Source: Psammoneis japonica
Taxonomy: Eukaryota
Assembly: GCA_008632985.1 (NCBI GenBank)
Contig: QPGO01000134.1
Span: 186,001 to 228,890, forward strand
Direction: 5' to 3'
DNA length: 42,890 bases
Shown: positions 1,285-40,907 of the stretch, piece after piece
Position numbering within the stretch: position 1 is the first letter of the stretch
Layout: each line of letters starts with the position of its first letter
Notes under the pieces: generated by a model
Databases searched by the model: none
The model's input: the letters and a program-made list of their open reading frames with translations, nothing else
What the model was told of the DNA's origin: nothing
Translations under genes and position numbers: made by a program

Positions 1285-1289
1285 GCAAA

Positions 1290-7410: not shown

Positions 7411-7463
7411 GAAGTCGTCGCTGCATTTAAATCTCAACATGTCATTTTCTCTACGGAAATATG

Positions 7464-12139: not shown

Positions 12140-12673
12140 CTTGTTGTTGTAGTCGTTGGGAAGGATCGAAAATTATGACGATTTCAAGGTTGTCGTTGTG
12201 CTTCCAGCGTGTGTGACTCGGTGCAAGGTACTGATGACAATGCCTGACACAGAGAACCGAATTCTTGTGTTACTGAAGCAACAAGATACAACAAAGGTTC
12301 AGGTTGTTGTGAGTGACGCAGAGAAAACAACGATGGCGATGGAAATTCCCTCCACACCACGAGTGACGTGGTTGGTGTCAATCTTTGATCTCCGTACAAA
12401 ACTTGCGTTGGATTCTACGAAGCTCTAAAGATACACTCAATATCCGGGTTTTTCGGAGATGAAGTGCGTGTTGTTTGCCGCGTTGTTTGAGATGCGTGTT
12501 TCGTGCGCGCGTTTTCGTGACATCATCCGACATATTTTAATATATCCGGGTGCCTTTTTATTCGAATTCAAATTTTGCGTTGTCGTCCAAACTGCCAACT
12601 TCAAACTGCCAATCACCACAAAGACGCTACCACCCACCTTTCTGCCGGTGCTACCAGCATCTCTTTTGAGATT

Positions 12674-13984: not shown

Positions 13985-14021
13985 TTGTCATCGATGAAAG
14001 TTGCAGCGACCTACCATCATA

Positions 14022-17314: not shown

Positions 17315-17362
17315 GAAAGAGGGCAAGAGGGCGGCGGCTTAAAAACTCCAGTCACATTGACA

Positions 17363-17542
17363 GCAGATTAGCATGCTATTTGCATCACTAGTGTTTATTG
17401 TAAGAGTCTCAAATTTAACAACCTAACATGCTCCATCATGCGACACCACTGGTAGTTTCGGATCGACGGCAGATTAGCTTGCTGTTTGCACCACTGGCAT
17501 TCATTGTAGGAGTCTTAATTTTAACTACTGCATCATATGCTC
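17363..17542 (+). repeat. Imperfect ~70-bp direct repeat with ~106-bp period
   Basis: GCAGATTAGCATGCTATTTGCATCACTAG... at 17363 versus GCAGATTAGCTTGCTGTTTGCACCACTGG... at 17469. Confidence 0.75.
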
Positions 17543-17799
17543 TATCACATGTCACACGACATACGATGGTGTGACACTACCAATAGTTTCGGATTGACCA
17601 TTGGGAATCGAAATGCTGCACAACCTGCATCCTTCGTACACGCTTTCCCTAGAGTGCGCGCTTCTCCAAATTTGAAATTGCTGCATGGTTTCAAACAAAA
17701 CAGAAATCCATAATTCACAATGACACACAATGGAATCAAAGTCATTGGATGTATTGTACAATTTATGTTAAGAATGAAATAAGCAACGGGAAAATCGGT

Positions 17800-20150
17800 G
17801 AAAGTATCATTGAGATATCACGCCGTAAAGTGGGACACCGGCGGCTCGCATCATTGTGCTGCTGCAGTTTGCTGCGTGCAAATTGACTTGGTGAAATTTT
17901 GTGAGGGTTTCGTGTCCCTTGGAAATTGTGCGTGTTGTGTGCGATTGATTATGTGTCTGTGTATGGCACTTGTATGCGTGTCGTGTCCCTCAGGAATTGG
18001 GTGTACTGTCCCTCTGAGTCGGTCTAACACAGAAAATGCGCGAATGAATGAAAGGCAGGCAGGGGGGGGAAACAGTTGCGTTGGGCGGGTGGACAGGCGC
18101 CAACAACCCCATGCTGTTTGTCCGTCATTGCGCACACACGTGAATCTCTCCGAATGAATGAGTTCACTTCAAGTTCATCTTGGCACTCAGTGAGTGCTGT
18201 GCAACATGCCAGTTGAGTGCATGGCCCTTGTTTTGTGGTGTGGGCTCACCTGCAGACATGACTCGAAATCTTGGGTGTCAGCGCACATCACAAGACATTT
18301 TCCAGCATCTGCCAGTTGTTGTCAGCGCCGCGCATGTCAGCACATGCTCCCTCAAGACACAAGGGCCATGACAGACATGTCAAGCAGCAGAAGATGTCTT
18401 GCTGATGGCAGGGTGTGGCTGCAGTGTGTGACAGATTGTGTGAGTCAGCGAGCGTCCATCTTGTGTGGTGTGTGCAACGCGCCGTTGTCATGTGTGGCCA
18501 GCTCTTGCAGGGCCTGCTGCATGGCAGTCCGCCCAGCATTTGGTCTTCTCATGCTCTTGTTTGACAAGTGCCAAAACTGCCCTGTGGTGCACTGGTGGTC
18601 TGTGCATTTAGAGAATTGTCTTGTTTGTCAGCGAGCTGAGCAACAAGGCCCTGTTTTCTGTCCTGGGCACATTGCCACTTGGAAGACTGCACACAGCACC
18701 TCAAATGAGGACAGTTCTCTGCTGAACACTGACTGCGCTGGACTTGCATGTTGAGTGGCTGGCAGAAGCGTGTGCTGGGGTGGTTGGCCAGTTAGAGTGT
18801 CCAATGGCGGCAAAGTTAGTTTCCGTGTGGACGATGTACAGACGCAACGAAGGACAGCCGCTCCGATCCCATGCACCACTTGTCAGACACTGTTGTTTGT
18901 GCTCTGCTTTGATGTCATTTTGTGTCAATTTGTGGAGTGATTGTTGGGTGATCCACTCAGCAACTTTGTCATTTTTCACTGCTGGCACAGGCAGATTTTC
19001 TAAAATGTGGAGTGTGAAGAGGTGCAAATGCACTGCAGACTTGGCTGTTTGCTTGAGTGTTGAAGACAAATGTGTCTGTGTTGAGGATGGATTGACAAGC
19101 AAAGGTCATTTTTTGTGCTGAGAGCTCACATTTTTTTTGTTTTTGAGAAAAAGGGCACACCCCACACAAAGTGCGCAAGGTTTGCCAAAATGAAATTTTG
19201 ACAATGAGCAGAACTTTGTCTGTTCACAAGACATTGTGCACACAAAATGGCAACGACCATGTGCAATGTTCAGCTTGGTGCAAACACGTCTGTGGCGAGT
19301 CAAATGCCAGCCCTTGGCATTTCCTTGGAGATTGTGGCTTGCCAGCCACAAGCAGCAGTGCAATTTTGTAAAAAAGAGCAGATTGTTGAATGTGACAATT
19401 GCACACCAAATCTGACAATTGGAGCTTGAATGTTTGGACCCCACACTTGGAAAGGAGCCCCACCAGCAAGTCATGTTCTTGGTGTGGCAAAAATGTCTGA
19501 GCAATGCAGAGCCATGCATCTCAGTGGCAGAGCCAGCTGCAATTCTCACAAATGAGCACAAACCTCTTTTGTCCCATTGCACTGCAACCACATCCAAGTG
19601 ATTGCCTCAACATTTTGGTGGTTGACAGCAGAGTGCATCATCTTGCAGTTGGATGACCAGAGTGCTCCAGCTGAGTTTGGCAAAAAAAAGCTGACTTGTT
19701 GGCATGGCCCCAAAGTCTTGAGGTTCATGTGAAGTCTCTCAAGACCATGTCCAGCTTCTCAAGATTGTCTTTAAAGGATCCCTTTGTTGTGGCAAGCAAG
19801 TTGCTTGTATCCTGTTCAGGCTCCTGGGCAGAAGACAGGCTCTCAACAATGCTGTCGTCATGTGTTGGCTTCCAGGTCAAGATCACTTTGGGATCAAAAG
19901 AATCCCTTCACAAATGTCACCAAGGTGGTGAGACAAATGATGAAGAATGAAAGTGGAAACGGCACGCCGACGTTTGTTTGCCTTGGAGCTCGCAGCCGCC
20001 CAGTTTTTCCTCCCCTGCTCAAGATTCTTGCAGATTGCAACACACTGCACACACTGCCAAAAGTGCCATTTCATCACACGACCCTGTGCTGAGGTGTTTC
20101 TTACAACTGCTCGAAGCAACAGTCGGACGAGACTGGGATCGTCGTCAACT
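17800..20150. repeat. Degenerate TpA/CpG-depleted repeat relic, unclassified
   Basis: Almost no TA dinucleotides. The six-frame ORFs are Cys/His-rich and Tyr-poor, matching the composition of the repeats at 22.7-38 kb. Confidence 0.6.
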
Positions 20151-22361: not shown

Positions 22362-22664
22362 AAAAAGCCGATTTCGATACCTTTTGGCTACCGAGCAGGT
22401 GGGTAGAAGTACTTGTGTGACACTATTATACATTACTTCGAAATACATAAAACCAAACCAAAATAGCAATGGACTTTGGGAGTCGAACTTGCCGATTACA
22501 CGAACGTTTAAGACAGGTGCAGCCATTAGAGAATCGCTTGCTGACGTGGACTATGCACACAAATGGAAAACGAGTTTTATGTCTAGTAGATCCATGCAAA
22601 AGTGGAGATTCCAATTTTTGTACTCTTTTTAGCAGAGGAAAGCAAGAAGACATAAACAGTTAGA

Positions 22665-22990
22665 TTGCATGTTCTTTTAAAAAATCGTCAGCCGTGCCAT
22701 CTGGCGCTTGCATGCGACAATTGCAGGGGCCAAAACAAGAACAGAATGGTCACAAGGTCGATTCTGTGGCTTGTTGAGACAAAAAGATTCAAGAAAGTGC
22801 CTCTTGTGTGCCTTGCAGCTGGTCACTTGAAGAACCCTTGTGACGGGATGTTCAATCTGCTGATAAAGGACCACACAAACCTCAATCTTTTCACAGATGA
22901 TGGCCTCATTGGCACTTTGAATGGACACAAGGAGACCCTGGGAAGTTGTTTCAGTGGACGAAAAAAAGTCTGTTGAAACAGACTGTGGGT
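22665..22990 (+). mobile_element. DDE transposase fragment, Sola-like
   Basis: LALACDNCRGQNKN...LWLV...VCLAAGHLKNPCDGMF matches the DNCxGQNKN...xLxxGHTxNxxDxxF pattern. Confidence 0.7.
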
Positions 22991-24259
22991 TGGAACAGCA
23001 AGAAGGCACGTTGAAACTGACACCTTGTTGGTGCCGCTGTCACTCATTGCCCTGTGCACACACACTCATGTCAGTCAAACAGTGATTGAAAAACAATGCT
23101 GGGTGATGATGAAGCAGGCAGAGCAGCAAATGCATGGGAGAACAAACCATGTTCACATTGTGGCAAGATGAGGAGGGCTGCCTCCTTGTCATTGGGGTTG
23201 AAAAACAAAGGGAGAGAGGGGGCTCCATCTTGCCATCACCTCTCTGTCATTCAAACTGTGCAGAATTGGTTGATTTGGAAGACCACTCTTGGCATCTGTC
23301 AAGTGGACCCCTTTGCCATTTCAAACAACTGGAGATTGTTGGGTTAGATTGACACTTGTCAACGTGTCTTGCTTCCAGCAAACTTGGAATGAGACTGCAT
23401 TGTGCAAATTCCATGGCTCCAATGTTTTGTGATGCTTGTTTCCAAAACTCCAAGCACTGGTTGACTGCTTGTCAATGGACTCTCAACTGACCATGGGCTG
23501 AATGCTGCAGACCACAGCCAAGGCACAAGGCTTGGCATCATTTCTTTGTTGAGCTCCATGGAAGTCACAACTGGTTGCACTTTGTCAATCATGTGATCAG
23601 AGCTGGTTTTGTGCGAAGCAGCATCGGCACTGCAGCATTGTTGGGCACATTTTCACAGCCATGGATTCAACCCACTTCTTCAACCAGGTCGATTTCTTGA
23701 GTCAAATCTTTCTGCCAAGTCAGCGGCATGCAGGTGATTGACTTGTTGTCTTGCAACTCAATTGTCAGCCCCTGCTCCTCTGGAGTTTTTGGAATGACAG
23801 TGGTGGGGATCTCAATTCCAAGGATCTGTTCCAGCTTGCTTGGTTGCTGCAGTGCCATTGGATCATGTTTTCAGGTTTCTGTCCTGCGTCAACAATGCCA
23901 CCCAACAACTCACCACCCCCAGTCTCAAGGATGATTTCACATCATCGCCAACTTGCCTGTTTCATTTGAGTCAAGTCACAACATTTCATTTGAAGCAAAA
24001 AGAGCCAGGACTGTGCAGATTTAGACTGTGAGCAGTCTTTTCCATGGACAGCTGGTTGAAGTGTGTGGCCACTTTGACTGGAATGTCTGTTGTTGAATCA
24101 GAAATCTCAGAGCTGGTGCTGCCCATTGCACCGCCAACAGCAACTGCATCTTTGGCATCTGCAATGATGCACATTTCCAGCTTCAAGGCATGGCTTTTGT
24201 GAACAATCACTTCTGTTGTTTTGCCCTTTTTGGGTTCACAAACAATGATTTTGCCATCT

Positions 24260-24649
24260 GACGCGTTCCAGGTCTAGGTGGGACCTCGTACTACTGAACT
24301 GTGACATCGATAGTTTTTTGAATCACGTCGTATGTCGCGCACGTAGATTTCTACGTGATTTTTTTGACATTTTGTGTCATTTTACGGTACACTTACTGAG
24401 CGATCCGTCCAACAACTTTTGACATTTTTTGTTACAGCGCGATTCTATAATGTCTTAAGAATCGCGTAGGGCAGGTGCATTTGCAAAAACGTCGAGTGGT
24501 AAGAGGCATAATTGTACCACAAACTTGGCCGTTTATTTGATGTTGAAGATAAATATATCCATTAATTAAATTCTCGTAGTACGGAGCTCGCACGTAGAAT
24601 TCTACGGGCCCAATGTCACACGGAGTCCCACCTAGGGCTGGAACGCGTC
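24260..24649. mobile_element. MITE (390 bp), young copy with TSD ATCT
   Basis: TIR GACGCGTTCCAG..CTAGGTGGGAC at both ends. ATCT at 24256-24259 and 24650-24653. Non-coding, AT-rich interior. Confidence 0.93.
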
Positions 24650-26633
24650 ATCTTTCACTTTGACAAAATCAAAGGCGTGAAGCGGTTGTCTGCATTTGAG
24701 CATCACGCAGTTGGTTGCATCAACATCATTGTTGATGGAAGCAATTCCTGCAGCTGCCAAGCAACCCACCAGTCATGACAGACTGCTCACAATTTTTGCA
24801 CCTTGAGTCAATTGGGTTGTGCATTGACGCTGCTTTAAAAATGCAAACTTGCCTTTCCAGCCTTGAGAGCTCCTCAAGAAGCTCTTTGCCATTTGCCGTG
24901 TCAGTCAATGGGGCACAATGTGTGGTGCATTGCATTTCCCCTCCAACCCAATCAGATGAAACAGAGGGAAGAGCACAAGCAAAGAACGGAGCAACAACAC
25001 AAGTTAAACAGAGCAAAGCATGCAGTGGCAAACAACAAATGAGTTGCTCACACCCAAAACTCATGAGGTGCAACTCTGCACATTTCAACAGCAATCCACA
25101 AAGAGAAAAATGATGCCACAAGAGCTGGCATGTGACATGTTTGAGAGTCTCCTCTTGACCACAGCAATGACGCCACTTCAGGTTTGACAGATTGCAGTCA
25201 ACGCAAACAAGGCCAATGTTTTGGGTGGGCAGCAGGCAGCCACAAGGCTGAAAAAGGATGCAGCAGGCACTGCGTGAAAAAGCAAGAATGACATTTGTTT
25301 TTCCAAAGCCTCCCTTCCCATCCTTGGCCACTTTCCTTGGCTGTTGTTGCATCCTTCCATCTCCACCAGCCATGACACACAAGCGCTCAAAATGTGGGGC
25401 AGCCAGGACTCACAAATTGACAAAGCACTTTCTCCTTTTCTGGAGCATGCCAGAGCAGAAGACCAGTGCAAGTGATTCTGCTGCCTGGGTGACTGCAAGA
25501 GACTGCCCAACATGGTGTGCAAAAGAGGCAGCAAAAATCCTGGGCTGCTCCCCATGCATGGTCTGCAGCTGACAAAGGACCCAGCTTTTCTTTTCAGGCT
25601 TTGTCCTGGCTGTTTTCCTCTCATGCACAACTCCAACAATGGACAGCCACGTTGCTGCAGTCGGCCAATGTGGCTCAATTGGTGTTGCCTTGTTTGGCTG
25701 TGTTTTTGCACGACCACAAATTTGTTCCTCATTGTGGCTGTGGCAAACAAAAAATTGCCCAGACAAATCATTTGGTTCCCCTTCACCATGTGCAGGCAGA
25801 AATGGCACTTTCACCTCTGATGTCCAAAACATTTCTCCAGGCTCACGTGTTCTCACCTGGTGCAAACCACTCTACAAGATCCTTCAACTTTGAATCTCTG
25901 TCAAGCTTTTCATCTCAAGTCTGGCCACAGCCACTTGCATTGCTGCCATTGCTGGCCAGCATTTCCCTCCAGTGCTTTTGCAGAATTGAGCCTGGCTCTG
26001 AGTCGAGACACTGCACTGTTGAAGAAACAATTTGAGTTGTGCACTGGAACACTTGGATTTGTTTTGACCAGCCCCACTCTCAAAGTGCCCTGAAGTCTTG
26101 ACACATCATTTGTTGCTCCTGTCTGGCTTCTGCCAAACTGATCAGACATTGTGCTTTTGCCATGATCAAGGAATCATTGGCGCACTCACCCTCTTGAACA
26201 TTCAGCTGGTGTCTCTTGTTGCATTTTTGCAGCCAATGTGTCAACAGATCATTGGGGCCCATCTTGAGAAGACTGTTGTCTTCAAATGCATGGACATCTT
26301 CCTTGGCAACAAGGTCATGGACGGCTGCGCTGCAGCCAAGCAAAGAGTGCTGATGGCACCCCAGATGCCCAGTCTGGAGTGAAGGCATCACACCAGCGGG
26401 GTTCACAAAGTTGTCAGCAGGGCAGAGTGGATCCTCAACTTGAAGACATCAAAAACATTGGTGGGCACAGCAGCGCTGAGAGCACAACAGGCCCTGCAGG
26501 CCATGGAAATCTTGCCATGACTCTCATCAGCAAAACACAAGGGTCAGCTGATCAAAAATGCATGGGGCCTGGGTGGGTGGGCCAGAGCCATCATTTCATT
26601 GTCAATCTCCTGGCACACCAACTTGTGGCGGTG

Positions 26634-27071
26634 TGCAACACACAGCCACTGACAAGAGCCAATGCATCACGGCGACGTGTTGCAGCCTTTAAATGTCACA
26701 AAGGGCGTGACAAAATAACCTTTTGTCTGCATGCATGCTGCGTTGTGAATCCATGGCGGAGTGGTTCATCGTGTGACCATTAGGCAGGAGGCCAGGGGTT
26801 CGAAACCCTGAGTGGGAGTTGTCTGCAGCAACGTTGATCACTGTCGAACGCGTAAAACTCTGTGCAGTTCTGCATGTTCCTTCGCACGTGCCCACACTGT
26901 TCCGCCAAAACCGTGCAGTGTCAGCACACGTGAGCGTAGGTCGCGTGACACATGGGGAGGAGTGCAACACACAGCTGCTGATGAGAGCCAATGCATCACG
27001 GCGACGTGTTACAGCCTTTAAATGTCACAAAGGGCGTGACAAAATAACCTTTTGTCTGCATGCATGCTGCA
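26634..27071 (+). mobile_element. TRIM-like mini LTR retroelement (438 bp) with TSD GGTG
   Basis: 109-bp direct repeats at 26634-26742 and 26963-27071 (TG...CA). PPT GGGGAGGAG at 26954-26962. GGTG at 26630-26633 and 27072-27075. Interrupts a region that is continuous in copies A and B. Confidence 0.88.
26754..26807 (+). promoter_or_regulatory. tRNA-type Pol III internal promoter (A and B boxes) inside the TRIM
   Basis: A box TGGCGGAGTGG at 26754-26764; B box GGTTCGAAACC at 26797-26807 within the stem CAGGG...CCCTG. Confidence 0.7.
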
Positions 27072-30000
27072 GGTGCTTGAGAAATTTTGCCAACAACACC
27101 TCATCTTTGACAAAAATGACATGTGGCTCACACCAACAAGGCCAGTGCCACAAGAAATGCAACTTTTGAGTTCATCAACAGCACAGACCCTGTCCCTGCT
27201 TTCCTGCCTGCCCCTTGTTCTGGTGCGCAGGTGGTGGAAAAGATTTGAGCTGCACCCTTTGCGCTCCCAAATGTGAGAAAGCCAAGTGTGCCTCCAAACA
27301 CATGCTCTTGTCCCGCGACAGAATCAAGTGTCTCTCATTTGCTCAACACGCCATTGTGGCCAGGCCTCCATGAGCCAGCTGGACAAACAAACAGCTTGAC
27401 ATTGTTTTGCTGGCATTTTGCTGTCCTCACAATGGGCTGCAAGTTGGATGAGATGCACCCGGAGCTGCCACTCATGGTTGTGTGGTGGTTGTTTGCAACT
27501 TGATGTTCAAACATTGCAGACTCTTGTGTGCTCAACAAGCCATGACAGAGCTGCGCGCCTGTCTTGACCAACTGGAGTGGCGCCTGTCTCTTGAAATCTT
27601 GGGGTGAAGTTGGCTGTCAGCTGCCATGGCATTGATGAATGGATCCACAGAATTGTGGACAAGCTCCTTCTCAACCTTGTTGTTGGCAAGATCAAGAGAC
27701 ACAAGAGAACCCAAAACTGCTCCACTGCAATCTCAGACAAATCAACCTGACACTTTTGGCAATTGACAAAATCAGTGCTTGTGCCAACAGCCTGCACTTG
27801 CTCCAGTTCCAAGTCCACCGCAGCACATGTCACACCCCATGGAGTGCCGTCTTTTGCGCCAGAGATGCAAGATGTCTTCAATGACACCCGCATGGATCTT
27901 CAAAATCCAAGGAATCTTTCAAGATTTTGAGCACCTTTTCAGCACACAGCTCAGCAATCTTCCGTGCCATTGGGCTGCAACCAATCTTCGTGACAAACAG
28001 CCAGCTGCACTTCCCCCCTTCTGACTGGTGGGCGTGTCATCAGCAAAGGACTCTTGCCCAGTTCCAGAAGCTCTTTTTCTTCCTTGGTGCAAAGTGGCTG
28101 TTTGCCATGAGCTCATTGTGGTTGTTGCCCTTGGTTGATGCCAAGGCTGAAACATTGGCAGCAGGTGATTTTTTTTTGGTCAGTGTTGGTGGCTGAAGCA
28201 CCAGCAGTGGGCAAGTGGGTGTCAGCAGCTGCAGTGTTGGCAGCAGGTGAGTGGCGGGTGTCAGTCAAAAATTGAAAGGGGGTGTCAACAGCTCCAGCAG
28301 GTGGTGGTGATTGGAAGAAAGCAACAATTGACAGTGTGGGTTGCTTGGTCAATTTAGCCACCTTGTCATTCTTGAGGGTCAGTGTGCCAGCCACCACATT
28401 CAGTTTTGGCAGCTCAGTGGTTGGTGCCTTGGTGGTTGTCCTCTTGAAGTTGCTTGTGACAATGGCTGCTGCATTTGGCCTTGGAAGAGGGGATGAAAAG
28501 CATGGCCAGCAGCTTTTTATGGAGAGCAGCATTTGATGATGCAAAAGATTTTGCAGGCAAGCCCTGCTCAGCTCCTGTCTTGGCAAATGACTGGAAAAGC
28601 ATTGGCAACAAAAGAACAGTGCAGTGTGAACATGACAATGTGATTGAATGCTTGCCATGTCACAAATGACAGTGGTTGGTGTGCAAGAGCCAATGCCAAG
28701 CAAAGAGCTGTGCACCTCATGCTCATCTCTTGTCTCACTTGTGAAACAAACAAACAAACAAACAAACAACAGCAGAAATTCAGGGAAGATCTTGCATCAA
28801 TTCATTGCTCATCCAGAGAAAAAGCTGCGGCGGGTGTGACAAGAGGAGTCACTTGATGCCCAATGCACCTCATGTGCTGTTGGAGTTGACTGTTGTGTTC
28901 AAACAATTGGCGTGACAACAAGCCACATGCAAGAAGTGAGAGTCATGCTCAAAGCAGAAACAACACAAGCAGCAAAAAAACAAAGTGACTTGCTGCAACT
29001 CTTGCCAGTTTGGTGGATCTTTTTCCAGTCATCAACCCTGCCTGCTCAGTCACGGATGGTCTGGCAACATCACACTCATCTCATCACTCACAACCCACAA
29101 CATGGTGTCACCTTGTTGTTTGCATTGTGGTGGCAGAATGCACTGCAAAGCTCAAACAAACAAAGCAAGTGCAAAAATCAGCAACATCAGTGCATGAGCT
29201 GGACAGTGTTTGCCCCTCACAAGCAGGAGAAGCTCATGTTCCAGGGCATGAAGGACCCTGCTGCAGAGGTGTGCATTGAGGCAGTGCAACTTGAGGTGCT
29301 TTTGAAATGCCTGTGACTCACTGACACCTCGTCATCACCACAAAACATTGACCTGATGATGACAGCCCCAGATTGACAAGGCACAAGTTGCTCCAGGTCT
29401 CCTCTGCAGATCAGAAAGGCAACAAGAAAAGAGGACACTGCCTTGATGGAAAAACAGTCAAGTGCAGACAGTGTTTCAGCCAGAGCCGCATTCTTGGAGG
29501 ACAGACTTGGACCACCATCATTGGCTGTCTGCAAAAGAAAGACAGGTGCACTTGTCAGATGCACAAAATTTGTTCGTTGTCCTCGTGATTCATTTTGCAC
29601 ATTGCGCACTTGCCGCGCTCAAAAAACAAATGGTTTGACAGCAATGAAATGTCAGTCAAAGCAAGAAGCAGTGCATCTCAAAAAAAAAACAATTTGAAGT
29701 GCTGCTGCACCTTCACCCAGCAATGCTGGTGCCAGCTGACCCACACCTCCGGTGCACCCTGCAAGGAGTGCGGCAGAAGCGGGCTTGATTGGCCTGAATC
29801 GGCATCTCCCCTGAGGAGATGCCCGGCGGGAACAGCTGGTGCAGAGAGTGCAACAACACTTGGAGTTTGCTGTGGCATTGCTGGCAACATGCACACTGGT
29901 CATGCCATTGCCACAGAGGACAGTTGCAGCTGGGAAAAATTCACACGGGAGCCACAAAGGGAGCCAAAAGGAAGTCAAAGGAAGAGTGCCAAACCACTGG

Positions 30001-31169
30001 CTGTTGCTCATCAAGCAGTGAAACCTCACTCAAACCTCAAAGAAATGAAGCAATGGAAAGATTGCTGCATGCAGCAGAAAGCTTGATTTGCTGGCAAGCA
30101 AGGGGGAGTTTGTCCAGGGCTGGGTGACAAGAAATGGGAGTGCTTGATGATTCGACCAGTCCGTCATTGGGAAAAATGTTTTTCACGTGCAGAAACCATG
30201 CCTGATCTTGCGCAGAAATGCCGACACACACAGCAAATGGATGGCAGTCACTTGTTGCCAAAGGGAGGCTCATGCTCACACTCGTCAGCATCACAACAGA
30301 AGAAGCAATTTCGCCACAAGCAGTGAAGGACTTGGCTGGCCGATGGGAGCAAAGAAAGTCATTGGAGACAGAAGAGTGACGTGTTCCAGCCGCACGTGAC
30401 CCAAATCATGCACAAAAACAACATTTGCGCAATTTTTGCACGGTCTCTGACTTGCAAACGGTTTCTCACCACCAAAAGAATGGATTTGTTCAAATTTGAA
30501 TGTTTTGCAACACTGACAAGACTCGTGTGAGTGTTGCAACATCATTGTCATTGTGCTGTCTGTGTTTTTCATTGCGACAAACAAATCGCAACACAACAGA
30601 TGATTTTCAGCAAAATCATTGCCGTCATTTGGATGTCACCCAAACACATCTTTCTACGATGAGGCTTGGTGGGTTTTCTACCTGCAAAAAAGCTCAGCAC
30701 ACAATGCACTGACGCATGATCAGCGTTGAGTCTACAGAGAAAGTTCATGACACATGTCCCATGAGGACTTAACACCCCACAAAAAACTGTTCAAATGTTC
30801 ATGCTCTGGACTCCTGTAAAAGCCAATCCACTCAAGCATTTTGTGTGAAAATGCTCAACGCACTAAAAGATGCACAATTTACATTCAAAATCGATTGTCG
30901 TTTTGTGTGTCACCTGGGACTGGAACACATCAAGTGTGGGCACAAGAAGCTTAGAAACTTGACAAAACATTCATTGGTGGGGTTTGACGAAGCGCAAAGA
31001 ATTTGTGCTGAAATCCGTGCAGACAATTTCTTGGCTCTGCAGAAAATGACAAAAAGAATCAACACGCACATGACCCATGAGGAGTTGACGCCAATGCATG
31101 CACTCAATGTCAAAAAAAAAAGCACAAAAGTCCAAACGAATGTCATCCCACATTGTTGCTCCACACCCG

Positions 31170-34100
31170 TGGTCCATTTGTTGCTGAGCTGACAAAGGAT
31201 CCAGCCTTTCTTTTCAGGCTTTGCAATGACATTCTTCACCTCATGTGCTGCTCCGACAATGGACACGCCATTGCAGTCAGCCCACGTTGCTTGGTTGGTG
31301 TTGCCTCATCTGACTGTTTTTTTGCGCGCCCATGAATGGGTTCCTTGGTGTGGCCATGGCAAATGAAAACATTGCCCGGAAACACGATGCTGGGGCTGCT
31401 TGTCAGCAAATCATTTGGCTCCCCTTTGGCAGGTGCAGGTGGAAATGGCACTTTCACCTCTCAGGTCCAAAACATTCCTCCAGGCTTGCCATCCTCACCT
31501 GGCACAAATCGCTCTGCAAGATCCTTCAACTTTGTGTCTCTGTCAATCTTTTTGTCTGCAGTCTGGCCACTGCCATTTACATTGCCACAATTTTTGGCCA
31601 TTTCCTTCCAGTGTTTTTAGCAGAATTGCACCCAGCTCTGAGTTGCAGAAAACGTGGTGCTGAAGAAACAATTTGAGTCACAAGCTTGAACACTTGGAAT
31701 TGTCTTGACCAACCCTGCTCTCAAGAAGTGCAACCAGACACAGTGCCTTTGCCATGATCAAGGCATCATTCGTGCGCTTGCCCGCTTGAACTTCTGGCGG
31801 GTGTCTCTGGTTGCATTTTTGCATCCGACACGTCAACGGGTTGTTTGGGTCCATCTTGGGGAGATTGTTGTCCTTCAATGCGCAGATGTTTTCCTTGGTG
31901 ACATGGTCACGGAAGACTGCGCTGCAAGTGCAAGGGTGCTGATGGCATCCCAGATGCCCAGTCTGGAATGAAAGCATTGAGTTGATCGGGTTCACAAAGT
32001 CACTGGCAGGGCAGAGCTGATCCTTGTCTTGAAGACGTCAAAAAACATTGGTGAGCACAGCGGCACTGAGAGCACAACGGGCCCTGCAGGCCATGGGAAT
32101 CTTGCTGCGACTGTCGCCAGCAAAACACAAGGGTCAGTTGATCAAGAATGCGCAGGGCCTGGATGGATGGACCAGAGCCATCATTTCATTCTCAACCTCC
32201 CGGCACACCAATTTGTGGCCACGTTTGATGAACTTTGCCAACAACACCTTATCCTTGACACAAACAATGTGGTTTGCATCAACAACGCTGATGCCACAAA
32301 CATGGCTTTCGACCTTGTCAACAGCCAAATCCATTTCTACGTCCCCACCTGCCCGCTGTTCTGGTGAACAGGCGGCAGAAAAGATTTGATTCACACCCTT
32401 TGCATTCTCAAATGCAGGAAAGCCAAGTGTGTCACTGAACACATGCTCTTGTCCCATGACACAATTGGTTGTCTCAAGTTTGCTTGACACGCCATTGTGG
32501 CCAGGCTTCCACAAACCAATTGCATGAACAAACACCTTGGCATTGTTGGATTTGGCAAACCTTGCAAGAGGTTGTAAATCAGAAAAGATGCGTTCGGAGC
32601 TGCCACTCGCCATTGTGTGACAGTTGTTTGCAACTTGATGACCAAACATCACAAACTCTTGTGTGCTTGACAAGCCGCAGCAGAGCTGAACGCCTGTCTA
32701 GACCAACTGGAGCCTCTTGAAACCAAGGACGTCACCTCCACGATCGCGAATCTGCTGATGAAACAAATGTTGAAAAGGATGAAGAAGACTGTCTGTTGCC
32801 ATGGCCTTGATGAATGGATTCACCGCATTGCGGACAAGCTCCTTCTCAACCTCATCATCAATGAGATCAAGAGAAACAAGAACCCGAAACTGTTCCTCTG
32901 CAATCTCGGATGAATCAACCCAACACTTTCGGCGATTGACAAAATTGGTGCTCACACCAACACTCTTCACTTGCTCCAGTTCCAAATCCATTGTGGCATG
33001 CGTCCCACCCCATGCAGTGACTTTTTTGCAGACGCAAGACATTTTGAATGACATCCGTGTGGATCTTCAAACTCCCAGGCATTCTTCAAGATTTTGAATG
33101 CCTTTTCAGCATGAGGCTTGGCAATCTTCCGTGCCGTTGGGTTGCCACCAATCTTCATGACAAACAACCAATTGTGCTTCTCCTTCTGACTGTCAGACAT
33201 GTCGTCAGCAAAGGGCTCTTGTCCCTGCAGCTTCTTCTCCAGTTCCAAAAGCTCTTTTTCTTCCTTGGTGTAAAATGGCTGTTTGCCATCATGATCGTCA
33301 TCCTTGGTTGAGGTGAGCAAGTCGGCATCGGCAGCAACTAAAGAGTCAGCAACAGGCGAGTCGGCATTGGTGGCTGCAATGTTGGCAGCACCGGCAGGCG
33401 AGTCGGTGTCGGTGGCTGCGACGTTGGCACTGGGCATGTGTGCATCAACAGCTCTGGCAGGCGGCGGTGATTGGAAGAAAGAAGCAATGGGCAGTGTGGT
33501 TTGCTTGGTCAATTTGGCCACCTTGGAGCGCTTGACGGTTGGTGTTTCTGCAGCTTTTTGCTTCACTGGGAGCGCAATGGCAGGAGTCCTGATGGCAGTC
33601 CTGAACTTGCTTGTGACGCCAGCTGCTGCATTGGCAACGGGACTAAAAAAGGCACCAACAGTCCTTTGTCTTTTGTCCAGGGGCTTGCGCAGCTTGGGAG
33701 GCATGGTGATGTGACACATTTGGCTGCGGTGCGAATCCTTCTACATCACAAGAGAAAACGACATGACAAACAATGAGAATGACAAATGATTGGAAATGCA
33801 TGAGAGACAAAAGAACAACTCAGTGTGAATGACAACATGATTGAGCACTCACCGTGTCAAATGGCAACGATTGGTGTGTGGCCTCCAATGCCGAGCTGCA
33901 CGAAGAGCTTTGCATCTCGCACTTGTTTCCCGTCACTTGTGAGATGGCAAAACAAACAACAAGCAACAACCAATGTGAGACTCACATGTCAATGGCAGAA
34001 TGAGGAAATGTAACAAGGGAAAGAAGGAACACCACACCAAAAGCAAGTGCAACAACAAGAGCAGAGTGATGTCTCGTTTTGGTTTGTGTTTGATGAGCGA

Positions 34101-35225
34101 AGCGAAACGCGCCGAAAAAAAGCCACTCTGGATTGAACACATGCATTTTCTGGATGTGTCACACGCATCTTTCATCTCTCAGTTGTGAGAGTCAATTGTG
34201 AGTCGGAGGTGCGGAGACACTGTCTCTAGAGCAGAGAGGCGGGCGCACCTCTCTGTGGCACTGACACTGACACTCAATGCTTGCCAGCGAGCACAATCGA
34301 GCATTCATTAATTGCATTGACTGCTGTGGCTCTCCCACTCTCCACTGCAGCACCAGTGGCCAGGCTTTGGGCCCCAATGACAGAGAATCCAAAGCACAGT
34401 GAGACAAGCGTGGCAATCAAGAAATCAAAATGATGCCGAGAGAGAAAGCATCTTTCTTGACGCATTCCAGCCCCAGGTGGGAGCTCGCAGTGCTGACGTG
34501 TGACACAAATGAATTTTGTCATCCGTCGTGTGTTTCGCACGTAGATTTCTGCATGTGACATTTAAAAAAAATTGTCCAGACTCGCTGTTTTGTGAAGCCC
34601 CAGACGTTTTATGTGGCAAGTTCACAGAAACAACAATGTGCCAGTTGCATTCTTCAATGTCTGAAGAATGTAACTGGCCAAGTAAAAAATGATGTGCTTC
34701 AATCACAGGCGAGTTTGTGCGTTCGCAAAATTGCCTCATTTTCTGTTGGTGATCATTGACATTTTAATTGCCGCATGATTTTGCTGTGGAGCTCGCAGGC
34801 AGAAGTCTACGGGCCCAATGTCACACGGATTCCCACCTGCGTCTGGAACGCGTCTCTTGCAGATGGCAATCAACTTGCCAACAATGCAGAGACATCCATG
34901 ATTTGCAGCAGACGGGGACATCACTTGGTGTGAATGCTGTGCGTTCTGGTTGACGAACATGACTGTGCTTCGAATGAAATGAGTGATGGCTTCGTCTTGG
35001 GCCGGCACGCTGCGAGGTGCGTCTGCAGTTTCACATTGTCTCCCCTCCACATGTTGATTTCATCCAATCTGACAATGTTGATAAAAACAGAGTGGGCAGA
35101 GTGTGAGACAAGCAGCTGTTGAAATGACGATGGTGGCAGAAACTCATGAAACACGATGTGTCCAAAAAATCCTGCCTTCCTTGCTTGCTTCCCTTGGTTC
35201 TCTGTGTCCTTCCGCCATCCCCTGA
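31170..35225 (-). mobile_element. Large unclassified repeat, copy B (TpA-depleted)
   Basis: Colinear with 38300-42890 apart from deletions. ORF remnant MPPKLRKPLDKRQRTVGAFF starts at ~33704. Confidence 0.9.
34459..34854. mobile_element. MITE (396 bp), older relative of 24260-24649, with TSD TCTT
   Basis: Termini GACGCATTCCAGCCCCAGGTGGGA and TCCCACCTGCGTCTGGAACGCGTC. TCTT at 34455-34458 and 34855-34858. The empty site with a single TCTT is at 41611-41614. Confidence 0.93.
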
Positions 35226-35274
35226 CCACGTGCGCGTGCAGCACGCACAACGCACGCACAATGGGATGCATGCG

Positions 35275-36800
35275 TGTGGTGTTTCTGCAGCCTTTCGCTT
35301 CACTGGGAGCGCAATGGCAGGAGTCCTGGCAGCAGTCCTGAACTTGCTTGTGACGCCAGCTGCTGCATTGGCATTGGCAAGGGGACTGAAAAAGGCACCA
35401 ATGGTCCTTTGTCCTTCATCCAGGGGCTTGCGCAGCTTGGGAGGCATGGTGATGCGATGTGTTTGGCTGCGGTGCGAATCCGTCGGCATCGCCACAGCAA
35501 ACAACGGATTGTTAGAAATGAATCAGAAACAAACAAGAGTGCAGTGTGAACAATGGTGTGACCATGCACTCACCGTGCCAAATGACAGCAACAGGTGTGC
35601 TGCCACCAATGCCGAGTTGAGTGTAGCGCGCTCGTTGCATTTCAATGCGATCGTTTCCAACACGCTGAATGATGTCGACCCAACAACCAATCAGCACCAA
35701 ACAAAACAGTCAATGAGCAACACATTGTTCCACAAAGAGAAAATCATTGAATGGCAGTGTTGTCGATTCGACACTCACCTGGGGAAAATGTTGTTGGTGT
35801 GACACTGTCACGACGAGTCAATTGACGTTGGACGCACCTCGTGTGCCGATGGAGTCGTCGACTCTTGCGTTCAAACAATCGGCACGACGACAAACCAAAC
35901 ATGACAAGTGAGAATCACATTCAAAGTGTGAACCACACAAGACATTGACATGAATGGAGATGAATGCTTGCCTTTCAAAGAGCAGTCAAAAAACAAAGCC
36001 GCTCGATGCGACAGTTGCCTTCTTTTTGTCGATTCTGAGATTGATGACCGCGGAATTCCGGCGCGCCAATTTCGTGCCAGCATCAATCCCGCCTGATCAG
36101 TCACGGACAGTCTGTCCTCGCACTGCAGGTTTTTTGTCGGCATTCTCATCTTGTCACTCTTGAACTCGTCAAACACAACATGATGTTACATTGTTGTTTG
36201 CGCTGCACAAGATGGCCGAACGCGACAAACAAAGTGTGCAAAAAATCAGCAACGCCCGTGCATTAGCCGGACAGTGTCCAACTCTCTAAAACTCTGCCGC
36301 AGAAGCAGTGCATGAAGAGGCATGTTTTGAGGCAGTGGCCCTGCGTCTTGAGGTGGGTGCTTTTGAAGTTTCTGCAACTTGCTGACACTCGTCACCACAA
36401 AGTGTTGACCCATGACGACAACCCTGGATTGGCAAGGTGCGAGTCGTTTGGCGGCCTTTCTCTGCAGATCCGATGGCACAGAAAGACACAGAAATTAAGA
36501 CACCGCTCTGTCAGTGCCGTTCATCGACATTGTCACACAATGCAGCTTTTCTCATCATTCTTGGAGGACAGACTTGGGCTTGGACCATCATCAACCCGTG
36601 CAGAACTTCAGTCAGAGGGGCGTCATTGGAGGACATTCTTGGACAAGTGTCATTGATTGTCTGCAAAAGAAAGAAAGAGCACTTGTTAGATGCACAAAAT
36701 TTGTTCGTCGTCCTCGTGATTCATCACATGTTGCACAATGCATGCTCACCACATTCACACAAAAAACGGTTCGGCAAATGACAAAATGTCAATCAAAGCA
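35275..36800 (-). mobile_element. Large unclassified repeat, copy D (ORF 5' end plus upstream region)
   Basis: MPPKLRKPLDEGQRTIGAFF at ~35447, truncated after KRKAAETP. The upstream region matches 28600-29700 and 41770-41950. Confidence 0.85.
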
Positions 36801-36915
36801 GGCAGCACGTCTCAAAGCATGTCAGCACGCAAACAACAACATGCACACAAAATACAAACAAAGCAAATGGTGCAAGATGCCCATGACAAACAGCAGGATG
36901 TCCCCACTCCCAGCG

Positions 36916-37554
36916 CAAACTGTGCAGTGGTTCGCCGCATGAAATCACGAATGCGCGCGATTCCTGCCCCAAACCATCAAGTGGTTCGCGGCAAGCAAAA
37001 AACGAACTGACAGACGATGGGCAAAAGTGTAAAAGATGATGAGACATCTGCAACAACATTGCATCAGTCGACACAGCAACGTCTGTTTGACAATGTGTGT
37101 GCTTTGTTTTGGCGGTTTACTGTGTTCTTAAACTTCTCCATGCTGCTGCCGTCTTGTTCATCGTGAGCCTCATTTTTCTGGTTCAGTTTTGCACTCGACC
37201 CTCTGGCGCAAATTGCCACGCATGTTTCTACGCTCGTCCTCCCGAACCACCTCATGGTTCGCCAATTCTACGGGGCTCCCGGCACTTGTCCACGCAGCGA
37301 ACCGCTCAATGGTTTGATGTTTTTTTCTGGTGCTGCCCTGCGGTTTTTTCTGCGGGGTGAGAAAATCACCGCCAATGACCATGACGGTGATTTGACGGCG
37401 ACCGAGCTCCACACACGAGTGGCGGCTGACAACATGATGCATTGACAACAATGGCTTTTTGCCTCTGTTGAAAGGTTGCATCTGTGCAGGCACTCCTTTG
37501 TTGTGTCAGTTGCGAGTTTTATCCTGCGCAAGTTGCGAACCACTGAGTGGTTCG
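36916..37554. repeat. Five dispersed copies of the palindrome CGAACCA-N5-TGGTTCG
   Basis: 36916-36934, 36970-36988, 37243-37261, 37298-37316 and 37536-37554; deviations are transitions only. Confidence 0.85.
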
Positions 37555-38079
37555 ATTTTTTGCCCGAGTGGGGATGTCATGTGGCGTCGTTGCCTCACCG
37601 TTTTTCGAGCGTTTCGTTTGCGATGCATGCCGGCACTTCTGCTGCAAAATGCCAAACAGGAGATAAATCAACATTGCACAGAGAGAGCAGACAGCAGCTC
37701 AAAAAAATCATCACTGCACTTGCAACTTGCAAAGTGTGTCGCATCATGTGGATTCTGCCAAATGTGTGTCGAGTTCAGAATGAAGAACGCAATGAACGAA
37801 ATGAGCGCAATGAATGCAACAATGAATCGTGTCGAGACTCGTCCATGCACATGATGTTCATTTTGTGTTTGATGTGTTGAGGTTGCGTTGGCCAATTGAC
37901 CAAGGGAAAGCAAGGAAGGAAGGAGTTTCTTGGATCGCGCTCGCTCGCTCAAGTGGATTTTGAATCGCCAATGCACGAACCACGCACGTGCGATGGGATC
38001 GTGCGTGCACACAAAAATTTTAAAAGCACAACCGCCAAAAAATGATCGCAGCGAGTGCAATTGAAATTGTTTTTACGTG

Positions 38080-38222
38080 CTGTGCTCTCCAGCTCTCTAG
38101 AGTAGAGAGAACAGCCAGTCCACCAGAGGAATGCTGCTGTCTGCTTTTCTAAATTGTTTCTGCTGTGCTCCAGCTCTAGCAGAGAGAACAGCCAGTCTAG
38201 AGGAATGCTGCTGTCTGCTTTT
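38080..38222. repeat. Imperfect tandem duplication (~70-80 bp) at the truncated end of copy A
   Basis: CTCCAGCTCT...AGAGAGAACAGCCAGTC...AGAGGAATGCTGCTGTCTGCTTTT occurs twice. Confidence 0.8.
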
Positions 38223-40907
38223 CTTCGAGTGCAAGAGACTGCCCAATTTGCCGCAGTCCCAAAGAGCAAAAATCCCACATTGCTCCAAACCCATTGCCCA
38301 TTTGTTGCTGAACTGACAAAGCATCCAGCCTTTCTTTTCAGGCTTTGTCCTGATCGTCTTCCCCTCATGTGTGACTCCCACAACAGACACGTCATTGTGG
38401 TCAGCCGACGTTGCTTGGTTGGTGTTGCCTTGTCGGACTGTGTTCTTCGTACGCCCACGAATGGATTCTTTGGTGTGACCGTGGCAAACGAAAATGTCGC
38501 CGGGAAACACGACACTGGGACAGCTTGTCGGCAAATCATTTGGCTCCCCTTCATCAGGTGCCGGCAGATGTGGGACTTTCACCTCTCGTGTCCAAAACAT
38601 TTCTCCAGCCTTGCCGTCCTCGCCTGGTGCAAACCGTTCCATGAGATCCTTCAACTTTGAATCTCTGTCCAGCTTTTCGTCTTTAGTCTGCCCACTGGCA
38701 TTTACATTGCCACGATTGCCAGCCTCTCCCCTCCAGTGCTTTCGTAGAATTGGAGTGAGCTCCGAGTCAGAGACGACTTGGCATTGAAGTAAGGATTTGA
38801 ATCGAAAACTGGAACACTTGGAATTGTTTCGACCGACCCCGCTCTCAAGAAGCACCCTCAAGTCTTGACACATTTGTTGCTCCTCTCCAGCTTCTGCCAA
38901 ACTTGTGAGAGATCGTGCCTTTGCCATGATCAAGGAATCATTCGTGCGCTTGCCCTCTTGAACTTCTAGCGGGTATCTCTGGTTGCATTTTCGTATCCGA
39001 TGCGTCAACGGATCGTTCGGGTCCATCTTGGGGAGATTGTTGTCCTTCAATGCGCAGATATTTTCCTTGGTGACAAGGTCACGGAAGGCTGCACTGCAAG
39101 TAAAAGGGTGCTGATGGCATCCCAGACGCCCAGTCTGGAATGAAAGCATCGCGTTGATCGGGTTCATAAAGTCGTCGGCAGGGCAGAGCGGATCCTCGTC
39201 TCGAAGACGTCGAAAAACATTGGTGAGCGTAGCGGCACTAAGAGCACGACGGGCCCTGTGGGCCATGGGAATCTTGCTGCGACTGTCACTGGCAAAACAC
39301 AAGGGTCTGTTGATCAAGAATGCACAGGGCCTGGATGGATGGACCAGAACCATCATTTCATTGTCAACCTCCCGGCGCACCAACTTGTAGCCACGTTTGA
39401 TAAACTTCGCCAACAACACCTCATCCTTGACATAAATAATGTGGTTCGTATCAACAATGCCAATACCACAAATATGGCTTTCGACCTCGTCAATAGCCGA
39501 ATCCATTTCTACGTCCCCGCCTGCCCGCTGTTCTGGTGAATAGGCGGTAGAAAAGATTTGATCCGCACCCTTTGCGTTCTCAAATACAGGAAAGCCAAGT
39601 GTGTCACTAAACACGTGCTCTTGTCCAACGACACAATTGGTTGTCTCAAGTTTGCTTGACATGCCATTGTGGCCAGGCTTCCAAGATGCAATTACACGAA
39701 CAAACAGTTTGACATTGTTGGATTTGGTAAACTGCACAACGGGTTGTAAATCGGAAAAGATACGTTCGGAGCTGCCACTCGCCGTTGTGTAATAGTTGTT
39801 TGCAACTTGATGATCAAACATTATAAACTCTTGTGTGCTTGACAAGCCGTAGTAGAGCTGAACGCCTGTCTCGACCAACTGGAGCAGCATCTGCCTCTTG
39901 AAACCAAGGACGTCACCTCCACGATCGCGAATCTGCTGATGAAACAAACGTTGAAAAGGATGAAGTCGACTGTCCGTTGCCATGGCCTTGATGAATGGAT
40001 TCACCGCATTGCGGACAAGCTCCTTCTCAACATCATCATCAATGAGATCAAGAGAAACAAGAACCCGAAACTGTTCCTCTCTAATTTCGGATGAATCAAC
40101 CCAATACTTTCGGCGATTGACGAAATTGGTGCTCATACCAACACTCTTTACTTGCTCCAGTTCCAAATCCATTATAGCATACGTCCCACCCCATACAGTG
40201 ACTTTTTTTACAGACGCAAGACATTTTGAATGATATCCGTGTGGATCTTCAAACTCCCAGGCATTCTTCAAGATATTGAATGCCTTTTCAGCATAAGGCT
40301 TGGCAATCTTCCGTGCCGTTGGGTCGCCACTAATCTTCATGACGAATAGCCGATTGTACTTCTCCTTCTGACTATCGGACATGTCGTCAGTAAAGGGCTC
40401 TTGTCTCTGCAGCTTCTTCTCCAGTTCCAGAAGCTCTTTTTCTTCCTTGGTGTAAAATGGCTGTTTGCCATCATGATCGTCATCCTTGGTTGAGGTGAGC
40501 AAGTCGGCATCGGCAGTAACTGTAGAGTCGGTAGTAGGAGAGTCGGTAGTAGGAGAGTCGGTATTGGTGGCTGCAATGTTGGTAGTACCGGTAGGCGAGT
40601 CGGTGTCGGTGGCTGCGACGTCGGCACTGAGCGTGTGTGTGTCAACAGCTCTAGCGGGGGGTGGCGATTGGAAGAAAGAAGCAATTGGTAGAGTGGAGCT
40701 CTCAGTCAATTTGGCTACCTTGGAGCGCTTGACGGTTGGTGTTTCTGCAGCTTTTCGCTTCACTGGGAGCGTAATGGCAGGAGTCCTGGTAGTAGTCCTG
40801 AACTTGCTTGTGACGCCAGCTGCTGCATTGGCATTGGCAAGGGGACTAAAAAAGGTACCAATAGTCCTTTGTCCTTTATCCAGGGGCTTGCGCAGCTTGG
40901 GAGGCAT
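38097..40907 (-). CDS. 936-aa repeat-encoded protein of unknown family with an N-terminal PIP box; probably 3'-truncated
   Basis: Long uninterrupted ORF with three decayed paralogs in the window. QRTIGTFF motif and a Thr/Asp-rich linker with a 15-bp DSPTT duplication. Homology with copy C ends near 38290. Confidence 0.75.
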   Translation of the reverse strand: MPPKLRKPLDKGQRTIGTFFSPLANANAAAGVTSKFRTTTRTPAITLPVKRKAAETPTVKRSKVAKLTESSTLPIASFFQSPPPARAVDTHTLSADVAATDTDSPTGTTNIAATNTDSPTTDSPTTDSTVTADADLLTSTKDDDHDGKQPFYTKEEKELLELEKKLQRQEPFTDDMSDSQKEKYNRLFVMKISGDPTARKIAKPYAEKAFNILKNAWEFEDPHGYHSKCLASVKKVTVWGGTYAIMDLELEQVKSVGMSTNFVNRRKYWVDSSEIREEQFRVLVSLDLIDDDVEKELVRNAVNPFIKAMATDSRLHPFQRLFHQQIRDRGGDVLGFKRQMLLQLVETGVQLYYGLSSTQEFIMFDHQVANNYYTTASGSSERIFSDLQPVVQFTKSNNVKLFVRVIASWKPGHNGMSSKLETTNCVVGQEHVFSDTLGFPVFENAKGADQIFSTAYSPEQRAGGDVEMDSAIDEVESHICGIGIVDTNHIIYVKDEVLLAKFIKRGYKLVRREVDNEMMVLVHPSRPCAFLINRPLCFASDSRSKIPMAHRARRALSAATLTNVFRRLRDEDPLCPADDFMNPINAMLSFQTGRLGCHQHPFTCSAAFRDLVTKENICALKDNNLPKMDPNDPLTHRIRKCNQRYPLEVQEGKRTNDSLIMAKARSLTSLAEAGEEQQMCQDLRVLLESGVGRNNSKCSSFRFKSLLQCQVVSDSELTPILRKHWRGEAGNRGNVNASGQTKDEKLDRDSKLKDLMERFAPGEDGKAGEMFWTREVKVPHLPAPDEGEPNDLPTSCPSVVFPGDIFVCHGHTKESIRGRTKNTVRQGNTNQATSADHNDVSVVGVTHEGKTIRTKPEKKGWMLCQFSNKWAMGLEQCGIFALWDCGKLGSLLHSKKSRQQHSSRLAVLSARAGAQQKQFRKADSSIPLVDWLFSLL

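Follow-up and report, generated by a model that had tools for sequence, protein, structure and literature searches.

The stretch of Psammoneis japonica DNA analyzed here (contig QPGO01000134.1 of assembly GCA_008632985.1, positions 186,001 to 228,890; 42,890 nt, from now on the window) contains an island of decayed repeats in which almost every TA dinucleotide has become CA or TG, and the TAs that survive are mostly those followed by a purine and an A on one of the two strands. Leaving undirected drift aside, we lean, at slightly better than even confidence, towards a process confined to the island that converts TpA to CpA or TpG through an enzyme modifying bases and aimed at silenced DNA; this judgement concerns the statement as a whole, and our confidence in the class of enzyme is lower. 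An initial annotation of the same DNA had proposed that the remaining TAs lie in TTA/TAA or TCTA/TAGA, and that such a protected context suggests the preference of an enzyme rather than a general GC-biased drift.

Dinucleotide observed/expected ratios (o/e), computed per 1-kb bin along the window, delimit two TA-poor blocks, at approximately 18026-20100 and 22679-38900:

22679..38900, unstranded: main depleted island, as defined by dinucleotide o/e
18026..20100, unstranded: smaller depleted block of 2.1 kb, with 8 TAs (o/e 0.06), CG o/e 0.33 and CA/TG 1.8-1.9

In both blocks, values per kb are 0.00-0.15 for TA, 0.09-0.98 for CG and 1.5-2.1 for CA/TG, with an unchanged GC content (0.46-0.50), compared with TA o/e of 0.42-0.80 and CG o/e of about 0.9-1.1 in gene DNA (bins 1-15001). 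From bin 23001 to bin 37001 TA o/e is 0.00-0.11, except for bin 24001 (0.42), where a young miniature inverted-repeat transposable element (MITE) lies, and bin 34001 (0.15). Both edges of the smaller block are sharp, as is the left edge of the island, which adjoins the 3' end of a normal gene, while the right edge is a gradient reaching about 800 bp into a repeat copy (copy C, see below). The edges of the blocks do not coincide with the edges of elements.

The ten TA sites cited in the initial annotation are all present, at coordinates correct to within 1 base. When its range (22670..34020) was counted without the young MITE (24259-24657) and the core of a young insertion (26742-26949), all 32 surviving TAs fell in the two proposed contexts, 25 in TTA/TAA and 7 in TCTA/TAGA, whereas the same contexts hold 382 of 765 TAs in normal DNA and 93 of 190 in copy C (Fisher p = 4.7e-10). 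The excluded MITE carries 29 TAs (11 TTA/TAA, 6 TCTA/TAGA and 12 other) and the excluded core 3 (2 TTA/TAA and 1 other). Depleted DNA that the annotation had not used (18026-20100 and 34021-38450) gave 36 of 40 TAs in the two contexts (p = 2.8e-7). The sequence logo suggested there as a check was built from 72 survivors and 955 background TAs, and the flanks do differ: A is found at +1 with frequency 0.44 against 0.20 in the background and, with the stronger enrichment, at +2 with 0.62 against 0.27, and T at +1 is depleted among survivors (0.08 vs 0.28). ATAT and ATAG/CTAT never occur among the 72, ATAC/GTAT occurs twice and GTAC once. The two contexts can be refined into a single rule, TA followed by purine-A on either strand (TA-R-A; TAAA/TAGA, equivalent to TTTA/TCTA), which includes 56 of the 72 survivors, compared with 214/765 TAs in normal DNA and 44/190 in copy C. 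This rule was read off the same survivors and is therefore descriptive.

A self-comparison of the window found three copies of one repeat within 17 kb, all on the minus strand:

25491..28500, minus strand: copy A, the oldest, 70-75% identical to C and broken by an insertion at 26621-27076
31145..36531, minus strand: copy B (31145..34457 up to a MITE insertion), 84% identical to C
38100..42890, minus strand: copy C, running off the window end; least mutated copy, taken as ancestor proxy
38100..38900, minus strand: left end of copy C, partly mutated, TA o/e 0.19
40908..42890, minus strand: upstream part of copy C, with normal TA (o/e 0.75) and CG (1.03)
38097..40907, minus strand: copy C protein P0001, an open frame of 936 amino acids with 14 Tyr codons

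Copy C is ancestor-like, and TA was lost, not gained, in copies A and B. Where copy C has TA, A and B hold different products (CA in one, TG in the other) at 23 of 67 sites, and the same is true for 22 of 48 CGs; therefore, a change in C alone cannot explain the differences. Of the 14 Tyr codons of copy C, 13 have turned into His or Cys in B and not one is still Tyr in A, and two Tyr columns conserved in the protein family (27/29 and 25/33 homologues) are intact only in C. Only 7 of 120 TAs are kept in copy B, where 63 became CA and 42 TG, and none of 96 in copy A. Of the CGs, whose products are also CA and TG, 48% remain in B and 7% in A.

When copy C was made to stand for the ancestral state of copy B, and the young MITE for that of an old MITE (34458-34861), retention could be corrected for ancestral composition: 8 of 64 ancestral TAs were retained in TTA/TAA and 4 of 20 in TCTA/TAGA (12/84 when pooled), against 0 of 83 elsewhere (p = 3.2e-4). 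Since this corrected retention differs by context, it is not independent of the flanks, and the independence that the initial annotation had named as evidence against its own proposal is contradicted. The TA-R-A rule gave 10/46 against 2/121 at the remaining sites (p = 4.8e-5), while copy A retained none of 68 ancestral TAs in the context test. The survivors are mostly retained and not new, 10 of 14 aligned TAs of copy B matching a TA in copy C and about 4 of 14 being newly made. An origin of TTA/TAA survivors as new products of TCA via TpC>TpT was rejected, as TCA>TTA is seen in 2 of 108 cases and the apparent TC>TT is TCG>TTG.

The spectrum of change from C to B, counted at copy C positions 38900 and above (2619 sites), comprises 215 transitions and 44 transversions. 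A>G is found at 11/39 TAA, 37/61 TAC (0.61, the highest), 20/49 TAG and 33/71 TAT, while all other A contexts remain at 0-0.10, with AAN at 0-0.02 and CAC, which has the next-best 5' base, at 0.10; pooled, 101 of 220 A's changed at TpA against 34 of 1159 other A's. C>T is likewise confined to CpG (58/275 vs 22/965 at other C's), as in decay of the methylation type, with 30/85 at TCG, 13/70 at ACG, 8/56 at CCG, 7/64 at GCG and 0.03 or less in other C contexts. The TCG rate is 0.35 against 0.11-0.19 for the other CpG contexts, and CpG is kept at 22-25% of TCGA and ACGA/TCGT sites against 56-100% elsewhere. Expressed as rate ratios, TpA changes about 48 times as fast as other A's, CpG about 16 times as fast as other C's and a TA site 3.9 times as fast as a CG site. 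General GC-biased drift is excluded because A>G concentrates at TpA while CG changes in the opposite way (strong to weak), to the same CA/TG products. The flank dependence and the rejection of drift put forward in the initial annotation thus stand, but an enzyme as the cause does not follow from them, since an error signature of polymerase or repair, or local DNA structure, also gives context dependence.

A TA site contains an A on each strand, and whether it ends as TG or as CA shows which of the two changed. A competition model on this basis, with 227 sites, ordered the 3' neighbour of the changed A on a log scale as C (1.15), T (0.59), G (0.43) and A (0), with a likelihood-ratio chi-square of 18.1 at 3 df; among tetranucleotides, TACG changed most often (23/31) and TAAA in 8 of 31. 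No strand-coordinated runs were found among the outcomes (runs tests, p = 0.08-0.99), and the reading frame of the repeat shows a mild sense-strand excess of A>G (107 vs 72, p = 0.011).

Different parts of the island are at different stages of decay. TA and CG o/e are, respectively, 0.12 and 0.95 at 36601-38099, 0.07 and 0.79 at 34862-36600, 0.06 and 0.49 in copy B, and 0.01 and 0.14-0.19 in copy A; TA is nearly gone where CG is almost intact, therefore TA loss precedes CG loss and the two are uncoupled. Transversions (161 in A, 44 in B), together with indels, scale with the loss of TA and CG. CA/TG flips are in excess in copy A (36/329, against 20/787 for other double-transition swaps; odds ratio 4.7), as expected under a persistent process that soon resolves any TA or CG arising anew. 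At the recent end of the series, 18 of 27 CA/TG discordances between C and B lie within the left 800 bp of copy C (p = 1.5e-6).

Sequences other than the repeat were also affected, and are listed here with the unmutated young MITE:

24259..24657, plus strand: young MITE with terminal inverted repeats TGACGCGTTCCAG, 29 TAs, TA o/e 0.91, CG o/e 1.52; unmutated
34458..34861, plus strand: old MITE inserted in copy B, 7 TAs (o/e 0.24), CG o/e 0.88; partly mutated
30377..30933, minus strand: third MITE relative, terminal repeats mutated (CG to TG, TA to CA); holds 7 of the surviving TAs of the initial annotation
23670..24261, minus strand: bacterial-type PheRS beta pseudogene, with B5 at 23670-23870 (34.5 bits) and B3_4 at 23989-24261 (47.6 bits) in different frames

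The MITE family is defined by the terminal repeats and by subterminal CGTAGA..TCTACG palindromes, and its three copies represent three stages of TA and CG decay. The PheRS beta pseudogene is non-transposon DNA with in-frame stops, cut by the young MITE, and its TA o/e is 0.03. Because the cut-and-paste MITE (29 TAs in the young copy, 7 in the old one) and the pseudogene are affected too, the process acted on DNA in place, on both strands, and not through RNA.

Taken together, these patterns demonstrate a transition process that saturates its TpA targets, responds to the flanks, works on both DNA strands and stays within the island, alongside a slower loss of CpG with TCG preferred. On our reading, a mutation process at the DNA level turns TpA into CpA or TpG where transposons and junk DNA lie silenced; A:T pairs become G:C at the A of a 5'-TA, whichever strand carries it. 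Conversion runs about four times faster than the accompanying decay of CpG to TpG/CpA, and about 48 times faster per A than at other A's; the A is changed most when its 3' neighbour is C (TAC, TACG) and least when it is A, and TA followed by purine-A on either strand decays about ten times more slowly. Because the rate depends on the flanks, the TAs found today would be the slowest sites plus newly made TAs persisting in that context. The agent may be a base-modifying enzyme that targets silenced chromatin, for which an adenine deaminase with a strict need for 5'-T (a specificity like that of TadA/ADAT) or a thymine-modifying enzyme acting at TpA are candidates; the part at CpG would come from deamination of methyl-CpG of the ordinary kind, TCG being preferred. 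No deaminase or other candidate gene was seen among the genes of the window and their Pfam matches.

A more specific version is that of a natural DNA adenine editor, in which an enzyme recruited to silenced DNA would deaminate adenine (or modify thymine) at duplex 5'-TA, giving a second, A:T-directed genome defence, the mirror image of repeat-induced point mutation (RIP); we offer it as a tentative idea, with well under even confidence. Our search of the available literature turned up no account of transposons hypermutated from TpA to CpA/TpG, whether in diatoms or in other organisms, and the erasure of TpA is, as far as could be found, an undescribed phenomenon. To our knowledge, all described systems of transposon hypermutation at the DNA level (RIP, the TCG type, APOBEC) act through cytosine. 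A process removing TpA through transitions from A:T to G:C would add a chemistry of mutation that is new to genome defence, and an enzyme behind it, if there is one, would be an editor of DNA adenine (or thymine) occurring in nature and aimed at two bases. To such an editor transposons would lose their TATA-type signals, their terminal repeats and their Tyr codons, at unchanged GC content. Scans based on GC or on RIP indices would miss such islands, their GC content being normal, and gene callers would be misled by their many long open reading frames.

Several points weigh against this explanation. The classes of context were drawn up once the data had been seen, partly from those data themselves, and the analysis covers one window, with ancestors for one repeat family and one MITE and 12 retained sites having an ancestor. 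The agent itself is inferred, no enzyme, base modification or chromatin state having been observed. Run X1, with which the sequence is compared below, is possibly a sample of the assembly itself, and its platform is not on record. TACG is the context that changed most, yet three retained sites are TTCTACG. Where TARA is present on one strand only, the A of that strand changed 18 times and its partner 34 times, with 10 sites kept; small as these numbers are, a TARA on a single strand seems to shield the A's of both, and recognition of the duplex fits this better than a single-strand deaminase. Edges that are sharp elsewhere contrast with the graded edge inside copy C, and recombination between old and new copies could also explain the gradient. 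The young MITE lies untouched in the island, therefore the process must be slow, episodic or no longer active.

Among the other explanations, the one that survives best, still an unlikely one in our opinion, is error-prone synthesis, either in repair patches at deaminated methyl-CpG or during late replication of silenced DNA, with a polymerase inserting G opposite T at TpA. The decay of CpG and the loss of TA share one domain, as this would predict, and A>G at 5'-T-A resembles the WA motif of polymerase eta. However, WA includes AA, which is practically unchanged in copy B, and the 48-fold effect of context far exceeds the approximately 2-fold bias of this polymerase for TA over AA. Error-prone gap filling around deaminated 5-methylcytosine has a precedent in a proposal made in PMC3409255, but the segment 36601-38099, depleted of TA with its CG almost intact, argues against a dependence on deaminated CpG.

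We regard as marginally less probable a homology-triggered process of the sexual cycle, similar to RIP, which would mutate duplicated DNA in bursts with TpA (and TCG) as target instead of CpA. The presence of three copies within 17 kb, the two older of which are saturated, agrees with it, the spread of about 800 bp into copy C resembles the leakage of RIP, and an untouched young MITE fits an episodic process. According to PMC9998398, many diatoms have DNMT4 enzymes related to fungal RID, with no function assigned. Against duplication as the trigger, the MITE family stands far above everything else in the summed contig depth of run X1 (127,601 vs about 40 nearby, which is not a copy number) and yet its young copy in the island is unmutated; copy C, long and 84% identical to B, is mostly unmutated; and the PheRS beta pseudogene is saturated in the absence of a second copy in the window. 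Intermediate states (the old MITE and the 36.6-38.1 kb segment) and the CA/TG flips indicate a gradual build-up instead of bursts, and an enzyme like a C5-methyltransferase cannot produce A>G.

Editing of transposon transcripts from A to I by an ADAR- or ADAT-type enzyme, fixed by reverse transcription and re-insertion, is very improbable and already largely refuted. The strict 5'-U/T and the A>G change do match the ADAT-type mRNA editing of fungi, and the mild excess on the sense strand would be in its favour. However, both strands changed throughout and without runs; a MITE, a pseudogene and various repeat pieces are affected in one contiguous block whose edges ignore those of the elements; no reverse transcriptase, and no known transposase domain, was detected in P0001 or its family; and the 3' order is C, then T and G, then A, not the G of ADAR.

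Equally improbable is a technical artefact in which heavily modified TA and CG bases were miscalled in sequencing or polishing. Modified DNA does give systematic miscalls in some long-read data, and the doubts expressed above on the origin and platform of run X1 also work in favour of this explanation. On the other side, separately built contigs of run X1 (771-1326 bp, word depth 30-40) match the depleted DNA with 0 differences, and therefore argue against a consensus artefact, even if they do not represent an independent organism. Moreover, the transversions and indels of copies A and B accumulate along with the loss of TA and CG, and the choice between CA and TG tracks the 3' neighbour and not long strand runs. 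A second run of that sample, X2, reaches only a gene end (22000-22392) and copy C (38612-41898) and none of the depleted DNA; nothing was inferred from it. Selection against TA and CG words, for instance for nuclease avoidance, is the least probable of all and already contradicted: joint suppression of CpG and UpA with an excess of CpA/UpG is a signature of RNA viruses and mRNAs, but the DNA concerned is dead, its repeat copies being frameshifted, its pseudogene interrupted by stops in frame and its Tyr codons all lost, the depletion to 0-0.1 of expectation goes far past selected signatures, and the functional-looking copy C is the one keeping its TAs.

The window is otherwise compact eukaryotic DNA with long intron-free genes encoding a fucosidase, an FtsH-like protease, a sulfotransferase and ankyrin proteins; the named best relatives of the fucosidase are from diatoms (Bacillariaceae, Seminavis, Nitzschia; 54-56% identity), other sequences reaching 62-68%. 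The remaining features of the island are the following:

22680..22919, plus strand: DUF7869 fragment (42.3 bits, cut-off 26), whose start is the exact onset of TA depletion at the left edge of the island
34862..38099, unstranded: DNA upstream of copy B and more repeat pieces, TA o/e 0.07-0.12, CG o/e 0.79-0.95
26621..27076: 456-bp insertion in copy A, with two 121-bp direct repeats (92.6% identical) flanking a 208-bp core at 26742-26949

The summed contig depth of the 456-bp insertion in run X1 is 55,059, which is not a copy number. Its core looks tRNA-like by eye, and scans with ARAGORN and Rfam gave no recognition. A 16-base word of the MITE, searched for in metagenome contigs, gave 97 loci, all of them chance matches of 19-23 bases, and no further copies of the MITE. 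The PheRS beta pseudogene probably extends to about 22.7-25.4 kb; at positions that are Arg in a solved homologue it has Gln and TGA, a comparison of the fragment with longer proteins found none, and a plastid-derived insert, horizontal transfer and transposon cargo are candidates for its origin. A Pfam search of the smaller depleted block gave no match. The adjoining 17101-18025 has CA/TG at 1.5 with TA (0.50) and CG (0.74) mildly low, and may be in an intermediate or very old state. Long spurious open reading frames are found in all frames and on both strands at 22679-38000, because TAA and TAG are gone. An (AAAC)n microsatellite lies at 28738-28775, and the 3' end of copy C carries a duplication in tandem, about 80 bp and 81.6% identical, at 38064-38224.

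P0001 belongs to an uncharacterised family, with 164 relatives at E of 0.001 or less in an exhaustive database search, whereas a word-indexed search, viral contigs, metagenome contigs, Atlas, PDB and Pfam (E up to 10) gave none. Within the family, hints of GIY-YIG and T5orf172 (7 and 5 of 36 members) and of T4 endonuclease II (E = 0.0049) are only sub-threshold, and the alignments are too divergent for locus scans. The N-terminal QRTIGTFF of P0001 resembles a PCNA-binding motif.

Among known systems, RIP, as found in Neurospora and other ascomycetes, is alike in its saturating context-specific transitions in transposon-rich DNA, on both strands, with spill-over and destruction of coding capacity. 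RIP turns CpA into TpA by C>T, which makes the DNA rich in A and T and introduces stop codons. Here, in contrast, A>G takes place at TpA, with TA nearly eliminated and CA/TG raised to 1.6-2.0 of expectation, that is, in the opposite direction; TAA and TAG are removed, Tyr becomes His or Cys, and GC content does not change. Dependence on repeats is not evident either: the duplicated copies A and B are mutated, but the high-depth MITE and most of C are not, while the PheRS beta pseudogene, single in the window, is; and the chemistry cannot be of the cytosine-methyltransferase type.

A TCG-targeted hypermutation of repeats in basidiomycetes has reportedly been described by Horns et al. in 2012. 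This system, like methyl-CpG decay, is similar to the minor component found here, C>T at CpG with 5'-T preferred, but it covers only the slower half of the pattern and leaves TpA untouched. It is notable that the CpG component shares its 5'-T preference with the TpA component. Diatom transposons are CpG-methylated through DNMT5, as stated in PMC9998398.

The somatic hypermutation of antibody genes is also local and combines C deamination with A>G at T-A motifs. It is due to AID and polymerase eta, the latter with its WA motif. In our case, however, AA is unaffected (AAN 0-0.02 against 0.28-0.61 for TAN), TA loss is independent of CpG loss, and the target is a silenced island and not a transcribed gene.

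The DNA of dinoflagellates contains 5-hydroxymethyluracil, reportedly with a preference for TpA and TpC, and is a precedent for enzymatic modification of T at TpA in an alga. We do not know of this base being mutagenic or confined to islands, and the papers returned by our literature search report none of it for diatoms.

The A-to-I deaminases are alike in that A is read as G, with a near-absolute need for 5'-U/T and TAC/TACG changed most. TadA/ADAT acts on U33-A34-C35-G36 of the tRNA anticodon loop, and the 5'-T and 3'-C(G) specificity that we observe resembles it, although this is a resemblance only. ADAR acts on double-stranded RNA, preferring 5' neighbours in the order U, A, C, G and a 3' G; in the island there is neither a preference for 3'-G nor a raised rate at AA, and neither strand clusters nor signs of passage through RNA were found. 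Above all, these deaminases act on RNA, whereas here it is DNA that was changed in place, on both strands.

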